A DNA stretch of 64,000 bases from Escherichia phage vB_EcoM-pEB20: the sequence record OP114733, one strand, 5' to 3'. The notes under the pieces were generated by a model, which was not told the DNA's origin, searched no databases, and saw only the letters and a list, made by a program, of their open reading frames with translations. Below are positions 1,784 through 59,639 of the stretch, in pieces. Within the stretch, counting starts at the first letter, position 1; each line of letters starts with the position of its first letter. The translations under genes and the position numbers were made by a program.

Positions 1784-1819
1784 GTTTACATAAGGATGAT
1801 GGTGTGTTACTATCATCCT
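1784..1819 (+). promoter_or_regulatory. early sigma70-type promoter (GTTTACA ... TACTAT) with inverted repeat AGGATGAT/ATCATCCT around -10
   Basis: -35 GTTTACA at 1784, ~18 nt spacer, -10 TACTAT at 1808; IR arms flank -10. Confidence 0.55.
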
Positions 1820-1849
1820 ATCAAATAAACAAACCAAACGGAAAAACAA

Positions 1850-2161
1850 ATGAAAACTTATCAAGAGTTTATCGCTGAAGCTACTAAAGCCGATAAAAAT
1901 TTTATTATTAACACCACCGGTCCGTTAGATGATGAATACGCTAATGCTATTATTAAGTCAATTTCTAATCAAGGCGTTGAAGTAACAAATTTCGAATATA
2001 AGAAAAATGATACTTATATGGTAATTAGTATCAAAAAAGGTTCAAAGGCTAAAATTAAATCTGCATTTGGTGTTATGCGAGTTGACCAAATTGATAACCA
2101 TGATTTTTCACAAACAGGGGTCAAACGCCAGAATACTATTTCATCTAAAGGCATAAAATAA
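1850..2161 (+). CDS. internal-protein-like (capsid-targeted) protein, ipI-locus position
   Basis: 103 aa beginning MKTYQEFIAEA, the T4 internal-protein capsid targeting sequence; located after 57B like T4 ipI. Confidence 0.7.
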   Translation: MKTYQEFIAEATKADKNFIINTTGPLDDEYANAIIKSISNQGVEVTNFEYKKNDTYMVISIKKGSKAKIKSAFGVMRVDQIDNHDFSQTGVKRQNTISSKGIK

Positions 2162-2162
2162 T

Positions 2163-2197
2163 TTACAACACGATAGGACTATGTTATAGTAGTCCTA
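2163..2197 (+). promoter_or_regulatory. early promoter embedded in perfect inverted repeat ATAGGACTA..TAGTCCTAT (PeSL-like)
   Basis: TTTACA at 2163, -10 TATAGT at 2185, IR arms 2173-2181 and 2189-2197. Confidence 0.55.
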
Positions 2198-2222
2198 TCA
2201 AAACAACAAAATGGAACCTAAA

Positions 2223-2486
2223 ATGAAAACTTTCAACGAATTCATCTCAGAATCGTCTGGTATGAAAATTAACAAAGCGGTCAATCAGGTTATTGCTGAT
2301 ATTCTTAATTTGTATAACATTGACTTAACTCCGCATATCACGCTTGGTAACAAACGAAACTTTTTCGTATTTGACACATCCGAACTTGATGAAAATCAGT
2401 TCAATAACATTCAACGTTTTGCGAATGATAAAGGTCTTCGACACGAGCCTGGTGGCTATAAAAAATACGCAATATATTTGAAATAA
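2223..2486 (+). CDS. small protein with capsid-targeting-like N-terminus
   Basis: 87 aa from internal ATG; starts MKTFNEFISES (CTS variant); track ORF begins 12 nt earlier. Confidence 0.55.
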   Translation: MKTFNEFISESSGMKINKAVNQVIADILNLYNIDLTPHITLGNKRNFFVFDTSELDENQFNNIQRFANDKGLRHEPGGYKKYAIYLK

Positions 2487-2489
2487 AGG

Positions 2490-2525
2490 TATACAAGCCT
2501 ATAGGGATATGTTATAGTAGTCCTA
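2490..2525 (+). promoter_or_regulatory. early promoter with inverted repeat ATAGGGATA..TAGTCCTAT (PeSL-like)
   Basis: TATACA at 2490, -10 TATAGT at 2513; third copy of the TAGTCCTATCAAAACAA motif. Confidence 0.5.
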
Positions 2526-2534
2526 TCAAAACAA

Positions 2535-2741
2535 ATGAGTAAATGGAGAAATAAAATGAAACGCGCTGAACTGATTCGTAATGTTGCTGTAGTAATTGCT
2601 TCAATGGCTTTTAGCTTTTCAATGTTTGTAGGATTCATTTGTGGACTACTGACAACAACTGAAAACTCTATCTCATTGGTAGTAGCATTTCTAATCGGCT
2701 TAATCGCTATCGTTATGGATAAAATTGCAAAAGGTGAGTAA
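2535..2741 (+). CDS. small membrane protein
   Basis: 68 aa with two hydrophobic segments (VAVVIASMAFSFSMFVGFICGLL, LVVAFLIGLIAIV). Confidence 0.45.
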   Translation: MSKWRNKMKRAELIRNVAVVIASMAFSFSMFVGFICGLLTTTENSISLVVAFLIGLIAIVMDKIAKGE

Positions 2742-3991: not shown

Positions 3992-4065
3992 GGCCCTGTA
4001 GCTCAACGGTTAGCAGCAGTCCCCTCATAAGGGAAAGGTTACCAGTTCGAATCTGGTCTGGGTCA
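3992..4065 (+). tRNA. tRNA with CAU anticodon (Met or Ile2/lysidine type)
   Basis: Acceptor stem GGCCCTG/CTGGGTC, T-arm ACCAG-TTCGAAT-CTGGT, anticodon loop CTCATAA; no encoded CCA; D and anticodon stems each have one mismatch. Confidence 0.7.
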
Positions 4066-4071
4066 TATATT

Positions 4072-4148
<77 letters not shown>

Positions 4149-4166: not shown

Positions 4167-4511
4167 ATGAAAGGCAATATTTATCTGGTAGTTCATGATT
4201 TAACGTTTTATTTTAACGAACATGATACAGTTATTTCAGGCCGATTGATTAATTTGTTATACCAACACGCAGATTACATCTATGTTCAAAATGAATTCGG
4301 CCATTGGAAGTTCATTAAAAACCGTTCCAGGTTAACTAGTTTTGAATACTTTGACCGTAAAGACCTTTTAAACGAAATTCCATTGCAACATCGGTTCCAG
4401 AAACGCGAATCATTATATTATTGCCGTCATATACCAAACGCCGAATGTGTTAATGAAGCGATTAATCTATGGCGTCGGCGTCGAGAGCAAATTGATGATA
4501 TGCCAAAATAA
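4167..4511 (+). CDS. hypothetical protein
   Basis: 114 aa from ATG 4167 with GAGGA SD; track ORF start 4119 lies inside tRNA-Arg and is rejected. Confidence 0.55.
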   Translation: MKGNIYLVVHDLTFYFNEHDTVISGRLINLLYQHADYIYVQNEFGHWKFIKNRSRLTSFEYFDRKDLLNEIPLQHRFQKRESLYYCRHIPNAECVNEAINLWRRRREQIDDMPK

Positions 4512-4822
4512 GAAGCCGGGTCGCTACCGGCAAGTCGTCGGACTGATGTTCCCTGGGTAAGGACTAGCCTTAATAAATCTTTATGTTTTGTTAATGCTCC
4601 CTTACATCACAGCAGAAACGGCGCACAGAATTATCGATTCGAGGAAATATCTTTGCCGTAAGCCGAGTAGCGTTTTTGACGGAACGTTCGGATATGGTCG
4701 AGATATGGCCTTTTAAAAATATTAAGTAGCGTCAACTACTTAATAACCAGGTTCAAATCCCGGCGTTTCGTACAAACACTTGCCTTAGCAGGTGGAACCC
4801 CGACAAGGTTGCCGCAAGGCTT

Positions 4823-4853
4823 AGCCCCTTCCGAAAGGTTGGGGCTTTTTTTT
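4823..4853 (+). terminator. rho-independent terminator
   Basis: Hairpin AGCCCC..GGGGCT followed by T8 run. Confidence 0.7.
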
Positions 4854-4897
4854 GCATAATAATAAATAGATAAGTTAATTAACTTAGGAAAAGTAAC

Positions 4898-5368: not shown

Positions 5369-5396
5369 GCCCCTTCCTTATGGTTGGGGCCTTTTG
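5369..5396 (+). terminator. rho-independent terminator
   Basis: Hairpin GCCCC-ttccttatggtt-GGGGC then CTTTTGG; same hairpin recurs at 20605. Confidence 0.65.
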
Positions 5397-5428
5397 GTAT
5401 CTAGGGCATAAAAATATTTCATAAAGTT

Positions 5429-5457
5429 GTTTACTTCTTCCCTAGATGTGTTACTAT
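5429..5457 (+). promoter_or_regulatory. early promoter
   Basis: GTTTAC at 5429, 17 nt spacer, extended -10 TGtTACTAT. Confidence 0.55.
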
Positions 5458-5485
5458 AGACCTATCAAAACATGAGGAGAATATT

Positions 5486-6070: not shown

Positions 6071-6298
6071 ATGGCTAAAGTTAGTATTGATGTCGTTGAT
6101 TATGAATACACTGAAGAAGTTATTCGCAACCGTCACCCTGAAGTTCGTATCGATTCAGTCCAAGATTCCAAGTTCTGGACAACCGAGCTTAATCTGAGTG
6201 GTCCTTATGAAGCTGTTAAGAAGTTCATGGTTGAAGAATACTGCGAAGGCATGCACCCCGAAGACGCCAAGTTTTATGTCAATTTGATTAAAAAATAA
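6071..6298 (+). CDS. hypothetical protein
   Basis: 75 aa ORF with SD AAGAGGAAAA. Confidence 0.5.
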   Translation: MAKVSIDVVDYEYTEEVIRNRHPEVRIDSVQDSKFWTTELNLSGPYEAVKKFMVEEYCEGMHPEDAKFYVNLIKK

Positions 6299-6334
6299 TT
6301 TACAAACTCTTGAGAGCAGAGTATAATGCTCTCA
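6299..6334 (+). promoter_or_regulatory. early promoter TTTACA..TATAAT flanked by IR TGAGAGCA/TGCTCTCA; near-identical copy at 36028
   Basis: -35 TTTACA 6299, -10 TATAAT 6322; about 45-bp repeat shared with 36028-36075. Confidence 0.55.
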
Positions 6335-6368
6335 TTGGATAATAAACCACCAATTGAAAGGTAATAAT

Positions 6369-7011: not shown

Positions 7012-7614
7012 ATGCGAAACCAAAATAATGATATTGACTCAATGTTCGAAGAGTTCCGAGATAAGGTAAATCCACCTACGTCTTTAGTTGATTCATTACG
7101 ATATGTTGCAACCGGACGTAAATGGTACTGGTCGTCTTCTTATGAGACCGCCGAGAAAACGGCTAGCCATAGCAGAAAATCTTTATTAGCCCCAGGTATT
7201 ATGATTCATGATATCGGAGCTATTGCTAAACTAGTTGCAGACCATGATATTAGATTCACTGATTTCGTTGCTCCTACGTGGTCTGTTTGTTGTTTAAACA
7301 CTGAATGGGAATATATCAGCGAACGCTCTGAAGATTATTATGGTTTTAGAGATAAGCTTCTGAGGTCTAATATGTTTTATATCGATACAGAAGTTCTAGT
7401 CGATAATAAAAAATATTACTTTACGTTAATCATCGATTCTGAAACTATGTATGAAGGCAAGCCTTTGCTTAAAAGAGTTGATGCTTTAAGTGCTATTGAT
7501 GCGCTTTATGAAACTATGGTTGTTAGTCCTAATTTCACTAACAATTTAATCCTTGAGCAATTTATTATGGAATGTAGAGAATATGTCAAAGCCAACCCTA
7601 TACATGCCAAGTAA
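7012..7614 (+). CDS. hypothetical protein, C-terminus carries the QFIMECR motif
   Basis: 200 aa from ATG 7012 with AAGGAG SD; C-terminal motif shared with four membrane proteins. Confidence 0.6.
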   Translation: MRNQNNDIDSMFEEFRDKVNPPTSLVDSLRYVATGRKWYWSSSYETAEKTASHSRKSLLAPGIMIHDIGAIAKLVADHDIRFTDFVAPTWSVCCLNTEWEYISERSEDYYGFRDKLLRSNMFYIDTEVLVDNKKYYFTLIIDSETMYEGKPLLKRVDALSAIDALYETMVVSPNFTNNLILEQFIMECREYVKANPIHAK

Positions 7615-9111: not shown

Positions 9112-9148
9112 GTTTACAACAAGATAGGGCTATGTTATAGTAGTCCTA
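9112..9148 (+). promoter_or_regulatory. early promoter in IR ATAGGGCTA..TAGTCCTAT (PeSL-like)
   Basis: GTTTACA 9112, -10 TATAGT 9136. Confidence 0.55.
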
Positions 9149-9169
9149 TCAAAACAAATGGAGTCCACA

Positions 9170-9409
9170 ATGATTTATTACGAAAGTATCGGAACCAAAG
9201 TGGTTGGTAAAACCATTACTCGTGAAAAGTTTGCAAAGATATTCGATATGCGTTATAAAAAATCTGAACACAAAGGCATCCGATTCGAAGATGCGCACTG
9301 TACAATTTGCCCTTATAATGAAGACATAAACGGTACAATCGTTCCATTGGTAGAGGCTTCACATGATGACCTCTGGGATGAATATGATATCGCATGTCGT
9401 GAAATTTAA
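9170..9409 (+). CDS. hypothetical protein
   Basis: 79 aa from ATG 9170 (GGAG SD 6 nt upstream). Confidence 0.5.
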   Translation: MIYYESIGTKVVGKTITREKFAKIFDMRYKKSEHKGIRFEDAHCTICPYNEDINGTIVPLVEASHDDLWDEYDIACREI

Positions 9410-10406: not shown

Positions 10407-10444
10407 GTTTACATCTTGATAGGACTATGTTATAGTAGTCCTAT
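10407..10444 (+). promoter_or_regulatory. early promoter in IR ATAGGACTA..TAGTCCTAT (PeSL-like)
   Basis: GTTTACA 10407, -10 TATAGT 10431. Confidence 0.55.
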
Positions 10445-10464
10445 TAAAACATGAGGAGAATATT

Positions 10465-10770
10465 ATGAAATTAGGCGAAACCAACCGAATTGGTCTTTTA
10501 ACAATATTTGTATCACTTTTTTACGCAGCTCTTTCTGTTGCAGTATTACAAAAGGCTTACAGTATGGATGGTGTTCCTGGTTTTGTATTCTTATCGCCGT
10601 TTTTGCTATTCGTTGGAGCATTGTTATTATATGCCACGACTAGTTTCGACCATAATGTCTGGGTCAATTATAAATGTAAATTGTCTGAAGAAGAACACGC
10701 AGAAGCTCGTAAAAAAGCTATTGAATCTACCAATCTAGAAAATTTCATTAAAGAATGTCGAGGAAAATAA
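10465..10770 (+). CDS. membrane protein of the NFIKECR C-terminal family
   Basis: 101 aa, two TM helices, C-terminal ENFIKECRGK; SD GAGGAG. Confidence 0.55.
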   Translation: MKLGETNRIGLLTIFVSLFYAALSVAVLQKAYSMDGVPGFVFLSPFLLFVGALLLYATTSFDHNVWVNYKCKLSEEEHAEARKKAIESTNLENFIKECRGK

Positions 10771-13432: not shown

Positions 13433-13486
13433 GTTTACTTCCTCCAAGGACTTTGATACTATACATTCATCAACTACTTGGAGGAA
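13433..13486 (+). promoter_or_regulatory. early promoter with long IR TTCCTCCAAG/CTTGGAGGAA spanning promoter and SD of denV
   Basis: GTTTAC 13433, -10 TACTAT 13457; 3' IR arm contains SD GGAGGAA. Confidence 0.55.
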
Positions 13487-13489
13487 ATT

Positions 13490-13903
13490 ATGACCCGTAT
13501 CAATTTAACACTTGTTTCTGAACTGTCCGACCAACATCTTATGGCTGAGTATCGTGAATTACCACGCGTATTTGGTGCAGTCCGTAAACATGTTCAAAAC
13601 GGTAAACGTGTAAAGGATTTTAAAATCTCTCCAACATTTATCTTAGGCACAGGTCACGTAACATTCTTTTACGACAAACTCGAATTTTTACGTTTACGAC
13701 AAATCGAGCTAATCGCTGAATGCTTGAAACGTGGTTTCAAAATCAAGGACACGACTGTCCAGGATATTTCCGACATCCCTGCCGAATTTCGTAATAATTA
13801 TGTCCCGTCCGAAGCGTCCATTGCGATAAGTCAAGCACGCTTAGATGAAAAAATTGCTCAACGTCCGACTTGGTACAAATACTATGGTAAATCAATTTAC
13901 TAA
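13490..13903 (+). CDS. denV: endonuclease V (pyrimidine dimer DNA glycosylase) DenV
   Basis: 137 aa [29 protein letters not shown]...; near-identical to T4 endo V. Confidence 0.95.
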
Positions 13904-16990: not shown

Positions 16991-17040
16991 GTTTACTTCT
17001 CCTCTAGTTGTGTTACTATAGACCTGTCAACTAGAGGAGA
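16991..17040 (+). promoter_or_regulatory. early promoter with 13-bp IR TCTCCTCTAGTTG/CAACTAGAGGAGA spanning -10 and SD
   Basis: GTTTAC 16991, -10 TACTAT 17015; 3' arm includes GAGGAGA SD of regB. Confidence 0.55.
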
Positions 17041-17047
17041 AATCAAA

Positions 17048-17506
17048 ATGACTATCAATTCAGACGTTTTTATCCGCCGTAATAAACTCCGTCGAATCTT
17101 TGAAACGGAGTTCCGCAAAATAAATGCCGGTATAAAAGATGCTGCAAAGTCTCTTGGACTACCAGGCTTTCATATCAAGTATTCTCAACATCTCTTAGAT
17201 CGTGCCATCCAGAGAGAAATAGATGAGAATTACGTTTTTGAATTATTTCATAAAGTAAAAAATCACGTTAAAGAAGTTGCAGAATTTTTGTCAATGCCGG
17301 CACGTCCAGATGTTGATGAAGATTTTGTCGAAGGTGTCGAGTATCGTCCAGGCCGTTTAGAAATAACTGACGGAAATCTTTGGTTAGGACTTACAGTTTG
17401 TCGCGAAAATCCGGCATTCAAAATGAAGACTCTTCAATGCAGAATGGCTATTATTAACAGTAAACGACTACCAGGAAAAGCTTCTAAAGCAGTGATTAAA
17501 ATCTAG
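17048..17506 (+). CDS. regB: endoribonuclease RegB
   Basis: 152 aa MTINSDVFIRRNKLRR...; near-identical to T4 RegB as recalled. Confidence 0.9.
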   Translation: MTINSDVFIRRNKLRRIFETEFRKINAGIKDAAKSLGLPGFHIKYSQHLLDRAIQREIDENYVFELFHKVKNHVKEVAEFLSMPARPDVDEDFVEGVEYRPGRLEITDGNLWLGLTVCRENPAFKMKTLQCRMAIINSKRLPGKASKAVIKI

Positions 17507-20604: not shown

Positions 20605-20632
20605 AGCCCCTTCCTTATGGTTGGGGCTTTTT
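20605..20632 (+). terminator. rho-independent terminator
   Basis: AGCCCC-ttccttatggtt-GGGGCT + TTTTT; same hairpin as 5369. Confidence 0.7.
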
Positions 20633-20643
20633 GGCATCTATCA

Positions 20644-20695
20644 GTTTACTTCTCCTCAGGTTGTGTTATAGTAGTCCTTACTTACTAGAGGAGAA
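20644..20695 (+). promoter_or_regulatory. early promoter with IR TTCTCCTC/GAGGAGAA
   Basis: GTTTAC 20644, -10 TATAGT 20667, 3' arm is SD. Confidence 0.55.
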
Positions 20696-20699
20696 CGTT

Positions 20700-20879
20700 A
20701 TGACACGTAAAGAAAAGATTTCTAAGTTAATGTTTTTGATTGAAGAGTACGCTAATGCGGTATCTGATTGGGAAAATGCCCATGGTTGCGAAGATGGAGA
20801 CATCGACATTAACAGAGCTATGAAAAAGATGGCCGAAGCCCACACCGAATTGCAAATGTATGTTAACGAGATTATGTGA
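20700..20879 (+). CDS. small hypothetical protein
   Basis: 59 aa from ATG 20700 with GAGGAGAA SD; track ORF start 20631 spans terminator and is rejected. Confidence 0.45.
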   Translation: MTRKEKISKLMFLIEEYANAVSDWENAHGCEDGDIDINRAMKKMAEAHTELQMYVNEIM

Positions 20880-21093: not shown

Positions 21094-21130
21094 TTTACAT
21101 GCTAATAGGACTATGATATAGTAGTCCTAT
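21093..21130 (+). promoter_or_regulatory. early promoter in IR ATAGGACTA..TAGTCCTAT (PeSL-like)
   Basis: GTTTACA 21093, -10 TATAGT. Confidence 0.55.
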
Positions 21131-21150
21131 CAAATCAATTGGAGAACAAA

Positions 21151-21261
21151 ATGAAACTTTTGCTTATCGCTTATGTTGTAGTACAATACAATTATCCGAT
21201 GTTTACTTATAACATGGTAAACGGCATAGTGAATCTTATTGAAACGAGTATGGTAAAATGA
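21151..21261 (+). CDS. very small hydrophobic peptide ORF (36 aa)
   Basis: ATG 21151 after GGAGAA; MKLLLIAYVVVQYNY...; below track cut-off; speculative. Confidence 0.3.
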   Translation: MKLLLIAYVVVQYNYPMFTYNMVNGIVNLIETSMVK

Positions 21262-21373
21262 CCCGTGAACAAGCTAATAAATTGATGGACCTTATTTAAT
21301 TTTTATAGAAATCAGGTTGATGCTCGTCAGAATGATTTGGTGAATTTTGTTGAAACTTTAATTGGTGAATAAT

Positions 21374-25213: not shown

Positions 25214-25250
25214 GTTTACAAGGTCTATGGTTATGTTATTATAGACCTAT
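25214..25250 (+). promoter_or_regulatory. early promoter with IR AGGTCTAT/ATAGACCT
   Basis: GTTTACA 25214, -10 TATTAT 25237. Confidence 0.5.
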
Positions 25251-25269
25251 CAACTACTGGAGGTAAAAC

Positions 25270-35787: not shown

Positions 35788-36027
35788 ATGGCCCAAGAAT
35801 TAGATTTTATCAAATTCAAAAAACACCTCGACGTTAAAATTGGGGATTCAATTGTTAGGATTGAGTATGACATTTTAACAGATGCTATTACTGTTAGTTG
35901 TGATGGAAATAGTTTCAGCTTCGATACAACCGAAAACAAATACCCAATCTATAAAGGCATCTTTGATATGGGTGTTGATATTACTCCACGTGATACAAAT
36001 TACTTACTTTTCATGCTTAAAAAATAA
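35788..36027 (+). CDS. hypothetical protein
   Basis: 79 aa ORF. Confidence 0.5.
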   Translation: MAQELDFIKFKKHLDVKIGDSIVRIEYDILTDAITVSCDGNSFSFDTTENKYPIYKGIFDMGVDITPRDTNYLLFMLKK

Positions 36028-36062
36028 TATACAAACTCTTGAGAGATGAGTATAATGCTCTC
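36028..36062 (+). promoter_or_regulatory. early promoter, near-identical repeat of 6299-6334
   Basis: ATACAAACTCTTGAGAGatGAGTATAATGCTCTCgTTGGATAATAAA. Confidence 0.55.
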
Positions 36063-36093
36063 GTTGGATAATAAAATAACCGAGGAAAATAAT

Positions 36094-40033: not shown

Positions 40034-41718
40034 AATCATTTAAATTAAATCGTGTTCGTTATCAAAACATCATGTCGGTAGGTGGGAATCCTATTGATAT
40101 CCAATTAGATAAAGTCCAAAAGACATTAATCACTGGTAAAAATGGCGGTGGTAAATCTACGATGTTAGAAGCCATTACTTTCGGACTTTTCGGTAAACCA
40201 TTTCGTGATGTTAAGAAAGGACAAATCATTAATAGCACGAACAAGAAAGAGCTCTTAGTTGAGCTTTGGATGGAATTCGATGATAAAAAATACTTCATTA
40301 AACGTGGCCAAAAGCCCAATATTTTCGAAATCTCCGTTGACGGTGTTCGTCTTGATGAATCTGCCAGCAGTCGTGACTTCCAAGAAGAATTTGAACGTAG
40401 CATCGGAATGTCATACGCGTCTTTTAAACAAATCGTTGTGCTTGGGACGGCAGGGTATACCCCTTTCATGGCTCTTAGCACCCCTGCTCGTAGAAAACTT
40501 GTCGAAGACCTTTTAGAAGTAGGCACACTCGCTGAAATGGATAAAATCAATAAGTCTCAAGTTCGAGAACTTAATTCCCAGGGACAAGTTCTCGATGCCA
40601 AGAAAGATGGTGTTATCCAACAAATTAAGATTTATAATGAGAATATCGAACGTCAAAAGAAATTATCTGGTGATAATGTAGCGCGTCTACAGAATATGTA
40701 TGACGACCTAGCCAAAGAAGCTCGTTCATTAAAAGCAGAAATCGAAGAAGCTAATGAGCGACTACTTAATATCGTTCTTGATGAAGACCCTACTGAGGCA
40801 TTCAACAAGATAGGACAAGAAGCATTCTTGATTAAATCTAAAATCGACTCATATAACAAAGTTATTAAGATGTATCATGATGGCGGTACATGTCCTACTT
40901 GTGCATCACAGTTGCACCAGGGTGATCCTATTGTCTCTAAGATTACCGATAAGCTTCATGAATGTAATCACTCATTCGAGCAACTTACCTGTCACAGAGA
41001 TAATCTGAGTGTCCTAGTGGACGAATATAGAGCTAATGTTAAGACTAAACAGGACCTTGCATCTGATATTCGTACCAAGAAACAAGCAATGATTGCCACT
41101 ATTGATAAAGCTAAGAAAGTTAAAGCTGCAATAGAACAAGCCTCAGCAGAATTTATCGACCATGCCGATGAGATAGCTTTGCTTCAAAAAGAACTTGATA
41201 AAATCATTAAAACAAAATCGGATATCGTTCTTGAAAAATACCATCGTGGTATTATCACAGATATGTTAAAAGATTCTGGTATTAAAGGTGCTATCATTAA
41301 AAAATATGTGCCTCTGTTTAATAAGCAGATTAACCATTATCTTAAAATCATGGAAGCTGATTACGTGTTTTCTATTGATGAAGAATTCAATGAATCTATA
41401 AAATCACGTGGTCGTGAAGAGTTCAGTTATGCTTCATTTAGTCAAGGTGAAAAAGCACGTATCGATATTGCACTGTTGTTTACATGGCGAGATATTGCTG
41501 AAAAGGTCTCTGGTGTTAGAATCAATACATTAATTATGGACGAAGTCATGGATTCCGCGACTGATTCTGAAGGTATTAAAGCTATTTCAACAATTCTTAA
41601 CTCTCTAACCGATGCAAACGTGTTTATAATTAGTCACAGAGACCATGACCCACAAGCTTATGGACAACATCTTCAAATGAGCAAAGTTGGACGATTTACT
41701 GTAATGACTGTTTCATAA
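40030..41718 (+). CDS. 46: recombination ATPase gp46 (Rad50/SbcC-like)
   Basis: 562 aa; Walker A GKNGGGKST, zinc hook CPTC, Walker B LIMDEV. Confidence 0.95.
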   Translation: MKSFKLNRVRYQNIMSVGGNPIDIQLDKVQKTLITGKNGGGKSTMLEAITFGLFGKPFRDVKKGQIINSTNKKELLVELWMEFDDKKYFIKRGQKPNIFEISVDGVRLDESASSRDFQEEFERSIGMSYASFKQIVVLGTAGYTPFMALSTPARRKLVEDLLEVGTLAEMDKINKSQVRELNSQGQVLDAKKDGVIQQIKIYNENIERQKKLSGDNVARLQNMYDDLAKEARSLKAEIEEANERLLNIVLDEDPTEAFNKIGQEAFLIKSKIDSYNKVIKMYHDGGTCPTCASQLHQGDPIVSKITDKLHECNHSFEQLTCHRDNLSVLVDEYRANVKTKQDLASDIRTKKQAMIATIDKAKKVKAAIEQASAEFIDHADEIALLQKELDKIIKTKSDIVLEKYHRGIITDMLKDSGIKGAIIKKYVPLFNKQINHYLKIMEADYVFSIDEEFNESIKSRGREEFSYASFSQGEKARIDIALLFTWRDIAEKVSGVRINTLIMDEVMDSATDSEGIKAISTILNSLTDANVFIISHRDHDPQAYGQHLQMSKVGRFTVMTVS

Positions 41719-41720
41719 AC

Positions 41721-41744
41721 GCTTTAACACGATGTGGTTATAAT
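41721..41744 (+). promoter_or_regulatory. middle promoter candidate within IR GATGTGGT/ACCACATC
   Basis: GCTTTAA at 41721, 11 nt, TATAAT at 41739. Confidence 0.45.
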
Positions 41745-41772
41745 GACCACATCAAATTAAATGGAGAACAAC

Positions 41773-41961
41773 ATGGAGTATTCAACCGGACAACATCTTC
41801 TTGTTGTCCCTGAAATTAAAAAATATGTTTTGACCAATACGTTTTCAGGTGAAGAACATATTGTTACTGAACAAATGCTCAAATCTGCTTTTAAAGATGA
41901 GTATAATAAAATAATGTCTAATCGCAATTCCGCATGGACAGTTACCGACTTCTACGAATAA
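41773..41961 (+). CDS. small hypothetical protein
   Basis: 62 aa from ATG 41773. Confidence 0.45.
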   Translation: MEYSTGQHLLVVPEIKKYVLTNTFSGEEHIVTEQMLKSAFKDEYNKIMSNRNSAWTVTDFYE

Positions 41962-57974: not shown

Positions 57975-58025
57975 GTTTACTTCTCCAGTAGTTGTGTTAT
58001 TATAGACCTATCAACTACTGGAGAA
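57975..58025 (+). promoter_or_regulatory. early promoter with perfect 14-bp IR TTCTCCAGTAGTTG/CAACTACTGGAGAA spanning -10 and SD
   Basis: GTTTAC 57975, -10 TATTAT 57998; 3' arm contains SD. Confidence 0.55.
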
Positions 58026-58029
58026 CAAA

Positions 58030-58347
58030 ATGAAAACCATCGATTGTAAAGCAGAATTTAAGATTTTTTATCACGGTTCAAGTAGTTCAGCTAACATCGA
58101 AAACATGCTTTGTCCTCCTGAAGAAACAGGAGTTCTGTCTGAAACTGGACGTAAGAAAAACTTGGATCGTGTATTCTTTACTGAAGATATCGGTTTAGCA
58201 AAGATTTATGCAGGACGAGCAGCCCGCTCTTATGGAGGTGAACCACGTCTCTATCGAGTAATTTCTCCGGTAGATGTAGTTCAAATGAATGATACTAAAG
58301 GCGCTACAGTTTATCACGCTGAATGGGCCTTCTGTGAGGAAATATGA
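58030..58347 (+). CDS. hypothetical protein
   Basis: 105 aa ORF. Confidence 0.5.
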   Translation: MKTIDCKAEFKIFYHGSSSSANIENMLCPPEETGVLSETGRKKNLDRVFFTEDIGLAKIYAGRAARSYGGEPRLYRVISPVDVVQMNDTKGATVYHAEWAFCEEI

Positions 58348-58545: not shown

Positions 58546-58575
58546 GTTTACAAGCCCCACATACTGTGTTACTAT
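58546..58575 (+). promoter_or_regulatory. early promoter
   Basis: GTTTACA 58546, -10 TACTAT 58570. Confidence 0.5.
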
Positions 58576-58603
58576 CTTTCTATCAACTACAGAGGAAATT
58601 GAA

Positions 58604-58972
58604 ATGAAAAAATTAATCGCTTTAGCAATGGTATTTGGATTAACCGGATGTGGTGCCCATGGCTTTATCCCTAATAACGTTGGCCAACTGATTTACAATC
58701 CGAATGTTAAACAGTACGACCACCCTAAAGTTGAAGTGGAAGACCCGGTTACTGTAGGTAATCGAATGATTCAAGCTGATGCCCATGCTCAACGTTATCG
58801 TGACTCTGATACTGTAGCATTGTCAAAAGAACAACGCGTTAAAGAACATTGCTTACAGGCTACTGAAATCGCATTCATTCGCTATGTTGAAACAACTGGT
58901 AAAGAGCCTACCCAGAAACAAATCGCGAATAACTACGTACAGTGTATTGAACGTTTAAACAAATTTAATTAA
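58604..58972 (+). CDS. putative lipoprotein
   Basis: 122 aa; signal peptide with lipobox LTGC. Confidence 0.6.
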   Translation: MKKLIALAMVFGLTGCGAHGFIPNNVGQLIYNPNVKQYDHPKVEVEDPVTVGNRMIQADAHAQRYRDSDTVALSKEQRVKEHCLQATEIAFIRYVETTGKEPTQKQIANNYVQCIERLNKFN

Positions 58973-59033
58973 TTGGTTTACACCAAAGTTAAAATAAGAT
59001 ACTATAAACATAACAAATCAAGAGGAAATTAAC

Positions 59034-59282
59034 ATGGAATTATTCGTAGCTAGTTCAGTAGCAGTTTTAATCGCAGGTATTGGTTCAATCATCATTTACA
59101 TGTTGCCTTGGGTAATCGCACTTATTCGTGGTACAAAAAGCACAACAGCAATCTTCTTTGTATCTTTACTCTTTAACTGGACGATGATTGGTTGGATTGG
59201 AACTTTAATTTGGTCTATCGTTGCCGAAAAGAAATCTGCTCAGCAGCCTCAACAAGTAATTATTATTCGCGAAAAAGAATAA
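59034..59282 (+). CDS. small membrane protein
   Basis: 82 aa, two TM helices, SD AGAGGAAA. Confidence 0.5.
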   Translation: MELFVASSVAVLIAGIGSIIIYMLPWVIALIRGTKSTTAIFFVSLLFNWTMIGWIGTLIWSIVAEKKSAQQPQQVIIIREKE

Positions 59283-59286
59283 ACTT

Positions 59287-59325
59287 GTTTACATTATAGA
59301 TGGACTATAGTATAGTAGTCCTATC
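59287..59325 (+). promoter_or_regulatory. early promoter with IR GGACTA/TAGTCC (PeSL-like)
   Basis: GTTTACA 59287, -10 TATAGT, TAGTCCTATCAAA motif. Confidence 0.55.
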
Positions 59326-59345
59326 AAATCAACTAAGGAGTTAAA

Positions 59346-59639
59346 ATGAAAAAGTTATCATTGGCAGCAATCTTACTTGCAGTATCATGTGCACCAGCTC
59401 CAGTTACGGCAGGTTATGATAAAGACCTCTGTGAGTGGTCAATGACTGCAAATCAAGAAGATGTTGAACAACAAATCTTCTCTGATATCATGAACATCAC
59501 TAAAAGAGACCGTCCTAATATGGTTAATAAAGTTGTTGAACAACTTAAGTCTGGCGGTATCATGCAGTACAACTATGTTTTGTATTGTGACCCTAATTTC
59601 GATAACAAAGATATCGTAACCGAAATCACAGGTGAATAA
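59346..59639 (+). CDS. sp: Spackle (periplasmic superinfection-exclusion protein, inhibitor of gp5 lysozyme)
   Basis: 97 aa with signal peptide; AGYDKDLCEWSMTA...GGIMQYNYVLYCD matches T4 Sp as recalled. Confidence 0.8.
   Translation: MKKLSLAAILLAVSCAPAPVTAGYDKDLCEWSMTANQEDVEQQIFSDIMNITKRDRPNMVNKVVEQLKSGGIMQYNYVLYCDPNFDNKDIVTEITGE

Follow-up and report, generated by a model that had tools for sequence, protein, structure and literature searches.

Promoter-embedded inverted repeats and early-gene cassettes in an RB69-like phage of the T4 family

What does an inverted repeat do when it is wrapped around the -10 box of a promoter? The question is raised by a stretch of 64,000 nucleotides of Escherichia phage vB_EcoM-pEB20 (sequence record OP114733; the whole stretch is hereafter the window), in which near-identical promoters carrying such a dyad recur, two of them in the piece around 2163 to 2525. 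To judge from its sequence, the phage is an RB69-like Mosigvirus of the T4 family: searches with 5-kb and 25-kb pieces matched RB69-like coliphages (Mosigvirus: RB69, SF, phiE142, mogra, and ATK47) at 95–97% identity, colinearity with T4 extends from about 75.4 kb down to 15.2 kb on the T4 map (66–94% identity), and the + strand of the window corresponds to the early-transcribed strand of T4. We consider it probable that the elements are self-contained early-gene cassettes, in which the repeat would form a hairpin in RNA read through from upstream, a second class of promoters would mask the Shine-Dalgarno sequence (SD) in such RNA, and shared sequence would offer crossover patches for gene swaps. 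Repeats that covary, a dyad in fixed register, an SD masked in predicted folds, and junctions inside the cassettes of relatives carry this reading.

Six copies of one promoter cassette and other dyad promoters of the window

The element is found six times on the + strand as GTTTACA-N5-ATAGGACTA-TGTTATAG-TAGTCCTAT-CAAAACAA, with -35 boxes starting at 2162, 2490, 9113, 10408, 21094, and 59288 (class A). A preliminary description of the sequence had reported an element of about 35 bp at these six sites, which is borne out with coordinates agreeing to within 1 nt. Searching for ATAGGACTA-N8-TAGTCCTAT with up to three mismatches gave six matches, all on the + strand (2173, 2501, 9124, 10419, 21105, and 59299), against 0.03 matches per shuffle expected by chance; none of 100 shuffles reached six, and an independent repeat finder returned the same family (D2). 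When the copies are aligned, an invariant core of about 45 nt runs from TTTACA through TATAGTAGTCCTAT to CAA between unrelated flanks, the conserved core of 43–46 nt consisting of GTTTACA, a 17-nt spacer, TATAGT, and AGTCCTATCAAAACAA. An SD lies 16–26 nt past the -10 box and is followed by ATG in six of six copies, and the 45 nt upstream are always A/T-rich, with a TAA or TAG 0–15 nt from the -35 box.

As a sequence match, TTTACA-17-TATAGT with its TG agrees with the promoter consensus at 10 of 12 positions, and a promoter scan called 2162, 2490, and a further site at 1785 with a TG-extended -10 box. Counting the -10 hexamer as -12 to -7, the 5' arm of the dyad spans -24 to -16 (from -25 in the longer version), the loop is TGT plus TATAG, and the 3' arm occupies -7 to +2, or to +3 in the 10-bp versions. 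The putative +1 is the A of CCTATCAA (the A of CCTATC), placed from the position of the -10 box and from published promoter logos, those of RB69 having C at -3 to -1 in agreement with it. Promoter features are absent from the T4 GenBank record, and our literature search found no genome-wide transcription-start map of T4 or RB69. The arms are perfect over 9–10 bp in three copies (2162, 10408, and 21094); among the imperfect ones, 9113 has a single G:T pair, 59288 has 6 perfect pairs, and 2490 is degenerate.

2162..2207, + strand: class A copy 1; -35 TTTACA 2162-2167, 5' arm GATAGGACTA 2172-2181, TGn plus -10 TATAGT 2182-2190, 3' arm TAGTCCTATC 2190-2199, putative +1 at about 2197; core folding energy (dG) -16.6, z -5.6; upstream of an Ip9-like open reading frame (ORF), its predicted driven gene
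2490..2535, + strand: class A copy 2; -35 TATACA, degenerate 5' arm ATAGGGATA 2501-2509, 3' arm 2518-2526; z +0.3; predicted driver of a trna.4 homologue
9113..9158, + strand: class A copy 3; arms 9123-9132 and 9141-9150 with one G:T pair; predicted driver of a 79-aa ORF, 9170-9409
10408..10453, + strand: class A copy 4; arms 10419-10427 and 10436-10444; predicted driver of a 101-aa membrane ORF, 10465-10770
21094..21139, + strand: class A copy 5; arms 21105-21113 and 21122-21130; its orthologue is T4 promoter 57989, which has different 14-bp arms
59288..59333, + strand: class A copy 6; perfect pairing limited to GGACTA/TAGTCC; predicted driver of sp (spackle, 59346-59639)

The ORF behind copy 21094 (21151-21261) encodes 36 aa against 59 aa in RB69 mobD.2a, and all four close relatives have 70 extra bases at 21295-21301, which may mean that the window phage has a truncated form of the gene.

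Further promoters, absent from the earlier list, share the class A layout but have arms of unrelated sequence; they stand at 1785, at the pair 6299 and 36028, and at 25215.

1785..1830, + strand: dyad promoter; arms AGGATGAT 1793-1800 and ATCATCCT 1812-1819; z -4.0; predicted driver of an Ip7-like ORF
6299..6345, + strand: dyad promoter; arms TGAGAGCA 6311-6318 and TGCTCTCA 6327-6334
25215..25260, + strand: dyad promoter; arms AGGTCTAT 25221-25228 and ATAGACCT 25241-25248; SD also masked in the predicted fold of read-through RNA

The stretches 6285-6346 and 36014-36075 are cassettes 30 kb apart which are 92% identical over 62 nt, both with the dyad TGAGAGCA/TGCTCTCA and a leader ..TTGGATAATAAA (repeat family D11). 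The T4 counterpart of the 6299 cassette, at 7214, has compensating arms, GGGACC/GGTCCC where the window has GAGAGC/GCTCTC.

In a second layout (class B) the 5' arm lies directly past the -35 box and the 3' arm is the SD itself. Four promoters of this kind, given earlier as 13433, 16991, 20644, and 57975, were recovered at 13434, 16992, 20645, and 57976, with arms of 8–14 bp. The values in the rows are predicted probabilities that the SD is unpaired, in read-through RNA and in the promoter's own RNA, respectively.

13434..13492, + strand: class B promoter of denV; anti-SD arm TTCCTCCAAG 13439-13448 pairs with CTTGGAGGAA 13477-13486 (10 bp); 0.00 and 0.48
16992..17050, + strand: class B promoter of regB; 14-bp arms 16997-17010 and 17028-17041, SD within; 0.00 and 0.57
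20645..20702, + strand: class B promoter; arms TTCTCCTC 20650-20657 and GAGGAGAA 20688-20695 (8 bp)
57976..58032, + strand: class B promoter of a 105-aa ORF; 14-bp arms 57981-57994 and 58012-58025, SD within; 0.00 and 0.71

A GC-rich, terminator-like hairpin at 20606-20640 stands just 5' of the class B promoter 20645 (repeat family D9). GC-rich hairpins with a T-run (GCCCCTTCC..GGTTGGGGC TTTTT) occur in three copies (4824-4858, 5369-5403, and 20606-20640), each directly 5' of a promoter or of an internal-protein (IP)-like gene, and with the promoters that follow they look like true terminator-plus-promoter composites; at least promoter 5430, behind such a hairpin, has no embedded dyad. A promoter without a TTTACA -35 box at 41716-41776 carries a MotA-box-like ACGCTTTA and a dyad GATGTGGT/ACCACATC tightly around TATAAT, and embedded hairpins may occur in middle-type promoters too.

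Pairing of spacer and start region in T4-like early promoters

The dyad extends well beyond the window. About 30–40% of the early promoters of T4, RB69-like, other T4-like, and Acinetobacter T4-like phages pair their spacer with positions -7 to +3, all promoters in these counts having been called by regular expression. Spacer and leader of one and the same promoter are complementary over 7 or more consecutive positions in 46% of the window promoters, against 11% of mismatched promoter pairs; the T4 values are 40% and 4.3%. An IMG/VR scan in which only TTTACW, TAnnnT, and CCTATCAA were fixed yielded 91 distinct promoters. Of these, 48 have a Watson-Crick match at the unconstrained pair (-19,-4), where column frequencies predict 25.5, and G:C, A:T, and T:A all occur; pairs (-18,-5) and (-17,-6) are likewise enriched. 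When the best perfect inverted repeat was sought without restriction in 298 distinct promoters, it had the spacer/start-site layout 80 times, about 30-fold above the 2.6 of column-permuted controls, and by the same control hairpins wholly inside the leader were not enriched (5 versus 5.2). Finally, 117 promoters were gathered through neighbouring proteins only, regardless of promoter sequence. Of these, 34 can pair at 6 or more successive positions in a single register, whose axis falls between -12 and -11; the control yields 4.8 (at most 11 in any of 200 permutations), and the other registers hold 0–3 each. That single register accommodates at least 33 distinct arm sequences, which argues that complementarity is selected and not the sequence of the arms.

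Orthologous promoters show how the arms change. Across 33 loci the trna.4 promoter has at least 8 arm variants linked by compensatory changes or by a switch to an SD-pairing dyad (arm pairs GGTAGGACTA/TAGTCCTACC, AGGGCTAT/ATAGCCCT, AGGGTTAT/ATAACCCT, and GTGTAGGGATA/TATCCCTACAC), orthologues of the regB promoter keep the SD-containing dyad with four different outer sequences, two loci having class A instead, and further arm variants were found upstream of the RB69ORF134c homologue. In T4 itself the arms are TGATGAGGTA/TACCTCATCA at ipI, AGTTGACAAGATTA with its complement (14 bp) at promoter 57989, and GACAAGACTA with its complement at dmd; the ipII and ipIII dyads measure 14 and 8 bp, and class B promoters stand at denV, regB, dexA, and 53942. 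Stem-loops before T4 ipIII, ipII, denV, and tk were reportedly described by Valerie et al. in 1986.

A search with the 46-nt element returned 1211 places in 312 phage records, with 5–8 copies per RB69-like genome, 1–2 in other T-even genera, and matches in Acinetobacter T4-like phages as well. Promoters of Acj61 and AB-Navy4 have GATAGGAC..GGTCCTATC, GACAGGGC..GGTCCTGTC, and GCATGGAGC..GGCTCCATC.

Acj61 (L003): Acinetobacter phage sites 20002, 30880, and 14916
AB-Navy4 (L004): Acinetobacter phage sites 20002 and 33193

Early promoters of these phages (Twarogvirinae) carry nearly the same arms, GATAGGAC/GTCCTATC, along with compensatory variants. The 3' arm approximates the conserved start region of T4-type early promoters, nnTCCTATCAA, and the spacer is its complement; look-alike cassettes can therefore appear in distant genera with no need for transfer.

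These data bear directly on an operator, which the preliminary description had offered as one alternative. A dimeric phage or host DNA-binding protein would bind the inverted repeat and jointly shut off the six promoters, a proposal that fits six near-identical palindromes centred on the -10 box and the report that the shut-off of T4 early promoters is not fully understood (PMC3014915). However, the layout recurs with unrelated arms at other promoters of this genome, orthologous promoters show compensatory arm substitutions, the half-site centres, about 17.5 bp apart, would lie on different faces of the helix, and G:T pairs break a DNA palindrome but not an RNA stem. An operator is highly improbable in our judgement, and a repressor operator was rejected on the at least 33 arm sequences in one register and the half-site spacing.

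Possible action of the dyad in RNA or in DNA

The preliminary description had also argued that the repeat is not simply an mRNA hairpin, its 5' arm being upstream of the transcription start. As a general exclusion this fails, since early genes of this phage have many tandem promoters. P1785 lies 377 bp upstream of P2162 with no predicted terminator in between, and a terminator scan of 1700-2700 found no terminator-like site; read-through RNA would therefore carry both arms of the class A repeat. For the promoter's own RNA, which is without the hairpin, the argument stands. We compared predicted folds of read-through RNA, started 30 nt upstream of the -35 box, with those of own RNA, started at +1. 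Class A cores are predicted to form a 9–11 bp stem around the -10 box (dG -11 to -17 kcal/mol, z -2.4 to -5.6), and the degenerate copy 2490 and dyad-free promoters have z near 0. In class B the predicted probability of an unpaired SD is 0.00–0.01 in read-through RNA versus 0.48–0.71 in own RNA.

Two indirect tests address the strand and the level at which the dyad acts. In helices that are otherwise perfect, G:T or T:G accounts for 10 of the mismatches and A:C or C:A for 3 (p = 0.046), re-paired controls giving 15:15; this ratio was 9:0 at first, 7:2 after removal of conserved promoter positions and de-duplication, and 10:3 with more loci. A version of the test using flanking pairs was discarded, being dominated by conserved promoter bases. 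Promoters that have a terminator-like hairpin and its T-run in the 90 nt upstream of them also carry the dyad less often (8/56 versus 155/369, p = 5e-5), and after clustering of related promoters the counts are 2/21 versus 60/184 (p = 0.04). Both results are hints that lean to a role in sense-strand RNA.

The dyad might instead act as DNA, either by extruding into a cruciform or hairpin, with the -10 box in its loop, which would help or hinder promoter opening, or as a structure-specific target (e.g., of endonuclease VII) that starts recombination. In favour of this, the axis is fixed at -12/-11, the upstream edge of the transcription bubble, in the 34 of 117 promoters noted above, and rearrangement junctions lie inside cassettes (see below). 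But the promoter consensus already contains T-17:A-6, R-16:T-7, and T-15:A-8 and so seeds the register; arms of only 9–14 bp and loops of 6–8 nt are unfavourable for extrusion, and class B loops measure 17–30 nt. Moreover, G:T is tolerated on the sense strand, where the opposite strand would carry A:C, and depletion of the dyad behind an upstream terminator is expected for a role in RNA, not in DNA. We regard a DNA-level role as unlikely. The fixed register could alternatively mean action on RNA polymerase itself; for example, a hairpin in the nascent RNA might release sigma or put an end to sigma-dependent pausing at the perfect -10 box that is read through.

Another candidate, which we find quite unlikely, is a terminator or attenuator for polymerase arriving from upstream, as proposed for the promoter-early stem-loops (PeSLs) of T4-type phages, the cassette being then a terminator and a promoter back to back. 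According to Arbiol 2010 (PMC2839356), a GC-rich PeSL stem-loop cut lacZ expression as strongly as rrnB T1, and in our data the dyad and a terminator-like hairpin upstream nearly exclude each other, as if they were substitutes. On the other hand, the scan of 1700-2700 was negative, CAAAACAA stands where a U-run should follow the 3' arm, the stems are AU-rich, class B loops are very large, and Arbiol 2010 (PMC2839356) treats the T-even elements as weaker, AT-rich analogues.

Gene exchange at the cassettes and its meaning for T4-like phages

The locus from which the question arose is variable among relatives. Between 57B and trna.4 the window has two internal head protein genes with a dyad promoter before each.

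1850..2161, + strand: Ip7-like internal head protein gene; leader MKTYQEFIAE
2223..2486, + strand: Ip9-like internal head protein gene; leader MKTFNEFISE; bracketed by copies 1 and 2
2556..2741, + strand: trna.4 homologue (61-aa membrane protein); conserved right-hand edge of the variable internal-protein locus

In two metagenomic relatives (L127 and L128, with 57B 98–99% identical) 57B is joined directly to trna.4 through a single hybrid promoter, which has the upstream flank of P1785 and the leader of P2490. EP02SG is without ORF 2223-2486, its alignment blocks ending at 2165 and resuming at 2545, and has a T4-type ipI leader behind a ATAGGACTA promoter; the same phage also lacks the gene behind P57542, and the following gene is joined on at that promoter's SD. 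These deletion products of L127, L128, and EP02SG are those expected of recombination between neighbouring copies, which for PeSLs is described as yielding mini-circles (PMC2839356). In RB69, ipI takes the place of ORF 2223-2486; the replaced stretch runs from 2249, where the shared IP leader stops, to 2508, within copy 2. At the position of the window's Ip7-Ip9 genes ATK47 carries Ip1-Ip7, and its GenBank record annotates a "43 bp direct repeat" around Ip7 and Ip9; the same phage has a 272-bp promoter-plus-ORF cassette inserted exactly at the -35 box of P10408. T4 homology starts exactly at copy 21094 and resumes at copy 59288 (59332). Over the first 25 kb, about 10 of 31 block ends in four relatives fall in promoter-leader zones, which make up 7.5% of the sequence, and five to seven of the 31 fall in class A zones (about 2%). 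The expectation that copies would mark presence/absence and replacement boundaries, a check named in the preliminary description, is thus confirmed by hybrid promoters and junctions in relatives.

The dyad could also be without any function, the six copies being recent duplicates or gene-conversion products whose palindromes were perfected by templated (quasipalindrome) mutation. Copies are indeed more alike within the genome than orthologues are between genera, hybrid promoters speak for frequent exchange, and templated correction of quasipalindromes in T4 was reportedly found by Ripley and co-workers. Yet at least 33 independent arms share one register in four genera, the layout is about 30-fold enriched over column-permuted controls, class B pairs specifically with the SD, and the dyad is depleted behind terminators, all of which makes a functionless dyad very unlikely.

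At least six ORFs have the internal-protein capsid-targeting leader (MKTYQEFIAE and variants; starts 1850, 2223, 4898, 13150, 13911, 14236, and 14576), grouped in the locus after 57B, in another by the tRNAs, and in one around e and denV, and breakpoints in comparisons with relatives often fall just past this leader (1872, 2249, and 14258). The genes imm.1 and imm, which T4 has between genes 42 and 43, are located between 61.4 and sp in RB69-like phages (window 58547-59340; RB69 locus L193), and on its right this relocated block is bounded by the class A promoter 59288. The gene order of the window is gene 3, gene 1, 57A/57B, the IP locus, tRNAs, e, denV, regB, tk, nrdC, nrdD, 55, 47-43, uvsX, 41, sp, primase, and gene 56. 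Rfam at gathering thresholds found only two tRNAs in the whole window (3992-4065 and 4072-4145), a pair annotated as tRNA-Met and tRNA-Arg in RB69, mogra, and ATK47, where T4 has eight tRNAs and segB; the rnaC/rnaD-like sequence at 4506-4850, 92% identical to T4, had no Rfam match.

Under the cassette reading that we favour, each unit would comprise an A-rich upstream stretch, GTTTACA, a 17-bp spacer, an extended -10 box (TGT TATAGT), the start, a short leader, and an SD. RNA from the cassette's own promoter would retain only the last 2–3 nt of the 3' arm and be unstructured, whereas RNA from the next promoter upstream would hold both arms and form a 9–11 bp hairpin ending exactly where the own RNA begins. 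In class B the anti-SD of the spacer would pair with the downstream SD, leaving read-through RNA untranslatable and only the promoter-proximal RNA in use. Through either class each small early gene would become an insulated promoter-plus-gene unit. As a core of 43–46 bp is common to several cassettes, the homologous recombination of the phage would find in it a crossover patch, and genes between two cassettes would be deleted, inserted, or exchanged, leaving hybrid promoters behind.

Several points weigh against this reading. The position of the start and the occurrence of read-through are themselves deduced from sequence, and promoter calling by regular expression underlies all the counts. 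No SD masking is predicted for class A (the SD of copy 1 is unpaired with probability 0.79 versus 0.83), and the class A hairpin, with CAAAACAA after its 3' arm and no U-tract, does not qualify as an intrinsic terminator; its effect on read-through RNA might be attenuation, pausing, 3'-end protection, or a processing boundary. The promoter consensus is a sufficient reason for the exact register, and an axis at -12/-11 would fit a DNA-level role too. When relatedness is taken into account, neither the G:T excess nor the terminator exclusivity is more than marginally significant. Lastly, whole-gene indels must end between genes, where promoters fill most of the space, and hence the nucleotide-level hybrids are stronger evidence than the block-end counts.

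How do the cassettes compare with known elements? Arbiol 2010 (PMC2839356) describes the PeSL layout as an AT-rich stretch, a sigma-70-type promoter, a stem-loop (mostly between the boxes or in overlap with the -10 box), an SD, and ATG, demonstrates recombination between neighbouring PeSL copies, and calls the Repoila 1994 elements at T-even IP loci analogous and AT-richer; Comeau 2014 (PMC4122927) extends PeSLs to PST/T4 with the consensus TTTACW-N17-TAYWAT and the stem AGNA...TCNT. The sets compared were RB49/phi1, PST/T4, and nt-1/KVP40 (PMC2839356, PMC4122927). Apart from the degenerate stem of copy 2490, the window elements resemble PeSLs at sequence level in everything except RB49-type homology: they are repeated in the genome, stand before small accessory ORFs at indel or replacement junctions, and have AGGA...TCCT, which fits the PST/T4 stem (PMC4122927). 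They differ from RB49/phi1 PeSLs, which have TTGACA and GGGG/CCCC stems, in their TTTACA and their AU-rich stems without terminator features, and from PST in that a figure legend there puts stems "just upstream" of the promoter (PMC4122927), whereas the terminator-plus-promoter composites of the window are separate (5369-5460 and 20606-20702). The earlier name, PeSL-like, is apt for layout, repetition, and indel boundaries but not for sequence homology, the elements being analogues, not homologues, of the RB49/phi1 PeSLs.

Among the closest known systems are the T-even IP-locus repeats (Repoila 1994, as relayed in PMC2839356), where an early promoter with an overlapping stem-loop lies on both sides of IP-leader ORFs, and IP gene order, number, and identity vary between relatives; copies 1785, 2162, and 2490 flank the Ip7-like and Ip9-like genes likewise. 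Copies 9113, 10408, 21094, and 59288, however, lie outside IP loci and their predicted driven ORFs have no IP leader, which means that the family is not confined there, contrary to the suggestion of Arbiol 2010 (PMC2839356) that such elements may confine shuffling to IP loci. For the T4 genes e, soc, 49, and I-TevI it is established that long transcripts sequester their ribosome-binding site (PMC3014915): the SD is buried in long RNA, and RNA from an internal promoter, without the 5' arm, is translatable. Class B (denV, regB, 20645, and 57976) has the same geometry in predicted folds, but there late promoters delay expression and here the internal promoter is early, so that translation would be restricted to promoter-proximal early RNA; class A differs in that its SD is predicted not to be buried.

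The elements are, in sum, a known kind of T-even cassette in an RB69-like genome, a rediscovery correctly observed and broadly correctly named. In the literature searched we did not find the quantification across genera (fixed register, many compensatory arms, and depletion behind terminators) or the retention of the SD-masking dyad of regB and denV in both T4 and RB69-like phages. The cassettes are joints at which phages of the T4 family swap injected anti-defence proteins and small accessory genes, which would help to account for rapid host adaptation. Proposals of this role date back to 1994 and were renewed in 2010 and 2014; the window is one more RB69-like example. More tentatively, it is possible that the dyad with its axis at -12/-11 is positively selected in about one third of T4-like early promoters and that promoter-proximal and read-through messages are treated differently. 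If true, this would give T4-like phages, those of Acinetobacter included, a general and uncharacterised level at which early genes are controlled. The quantitative picture together with the conservation at regB and denV makes the function of promoter-embedded hairpins directly testable.

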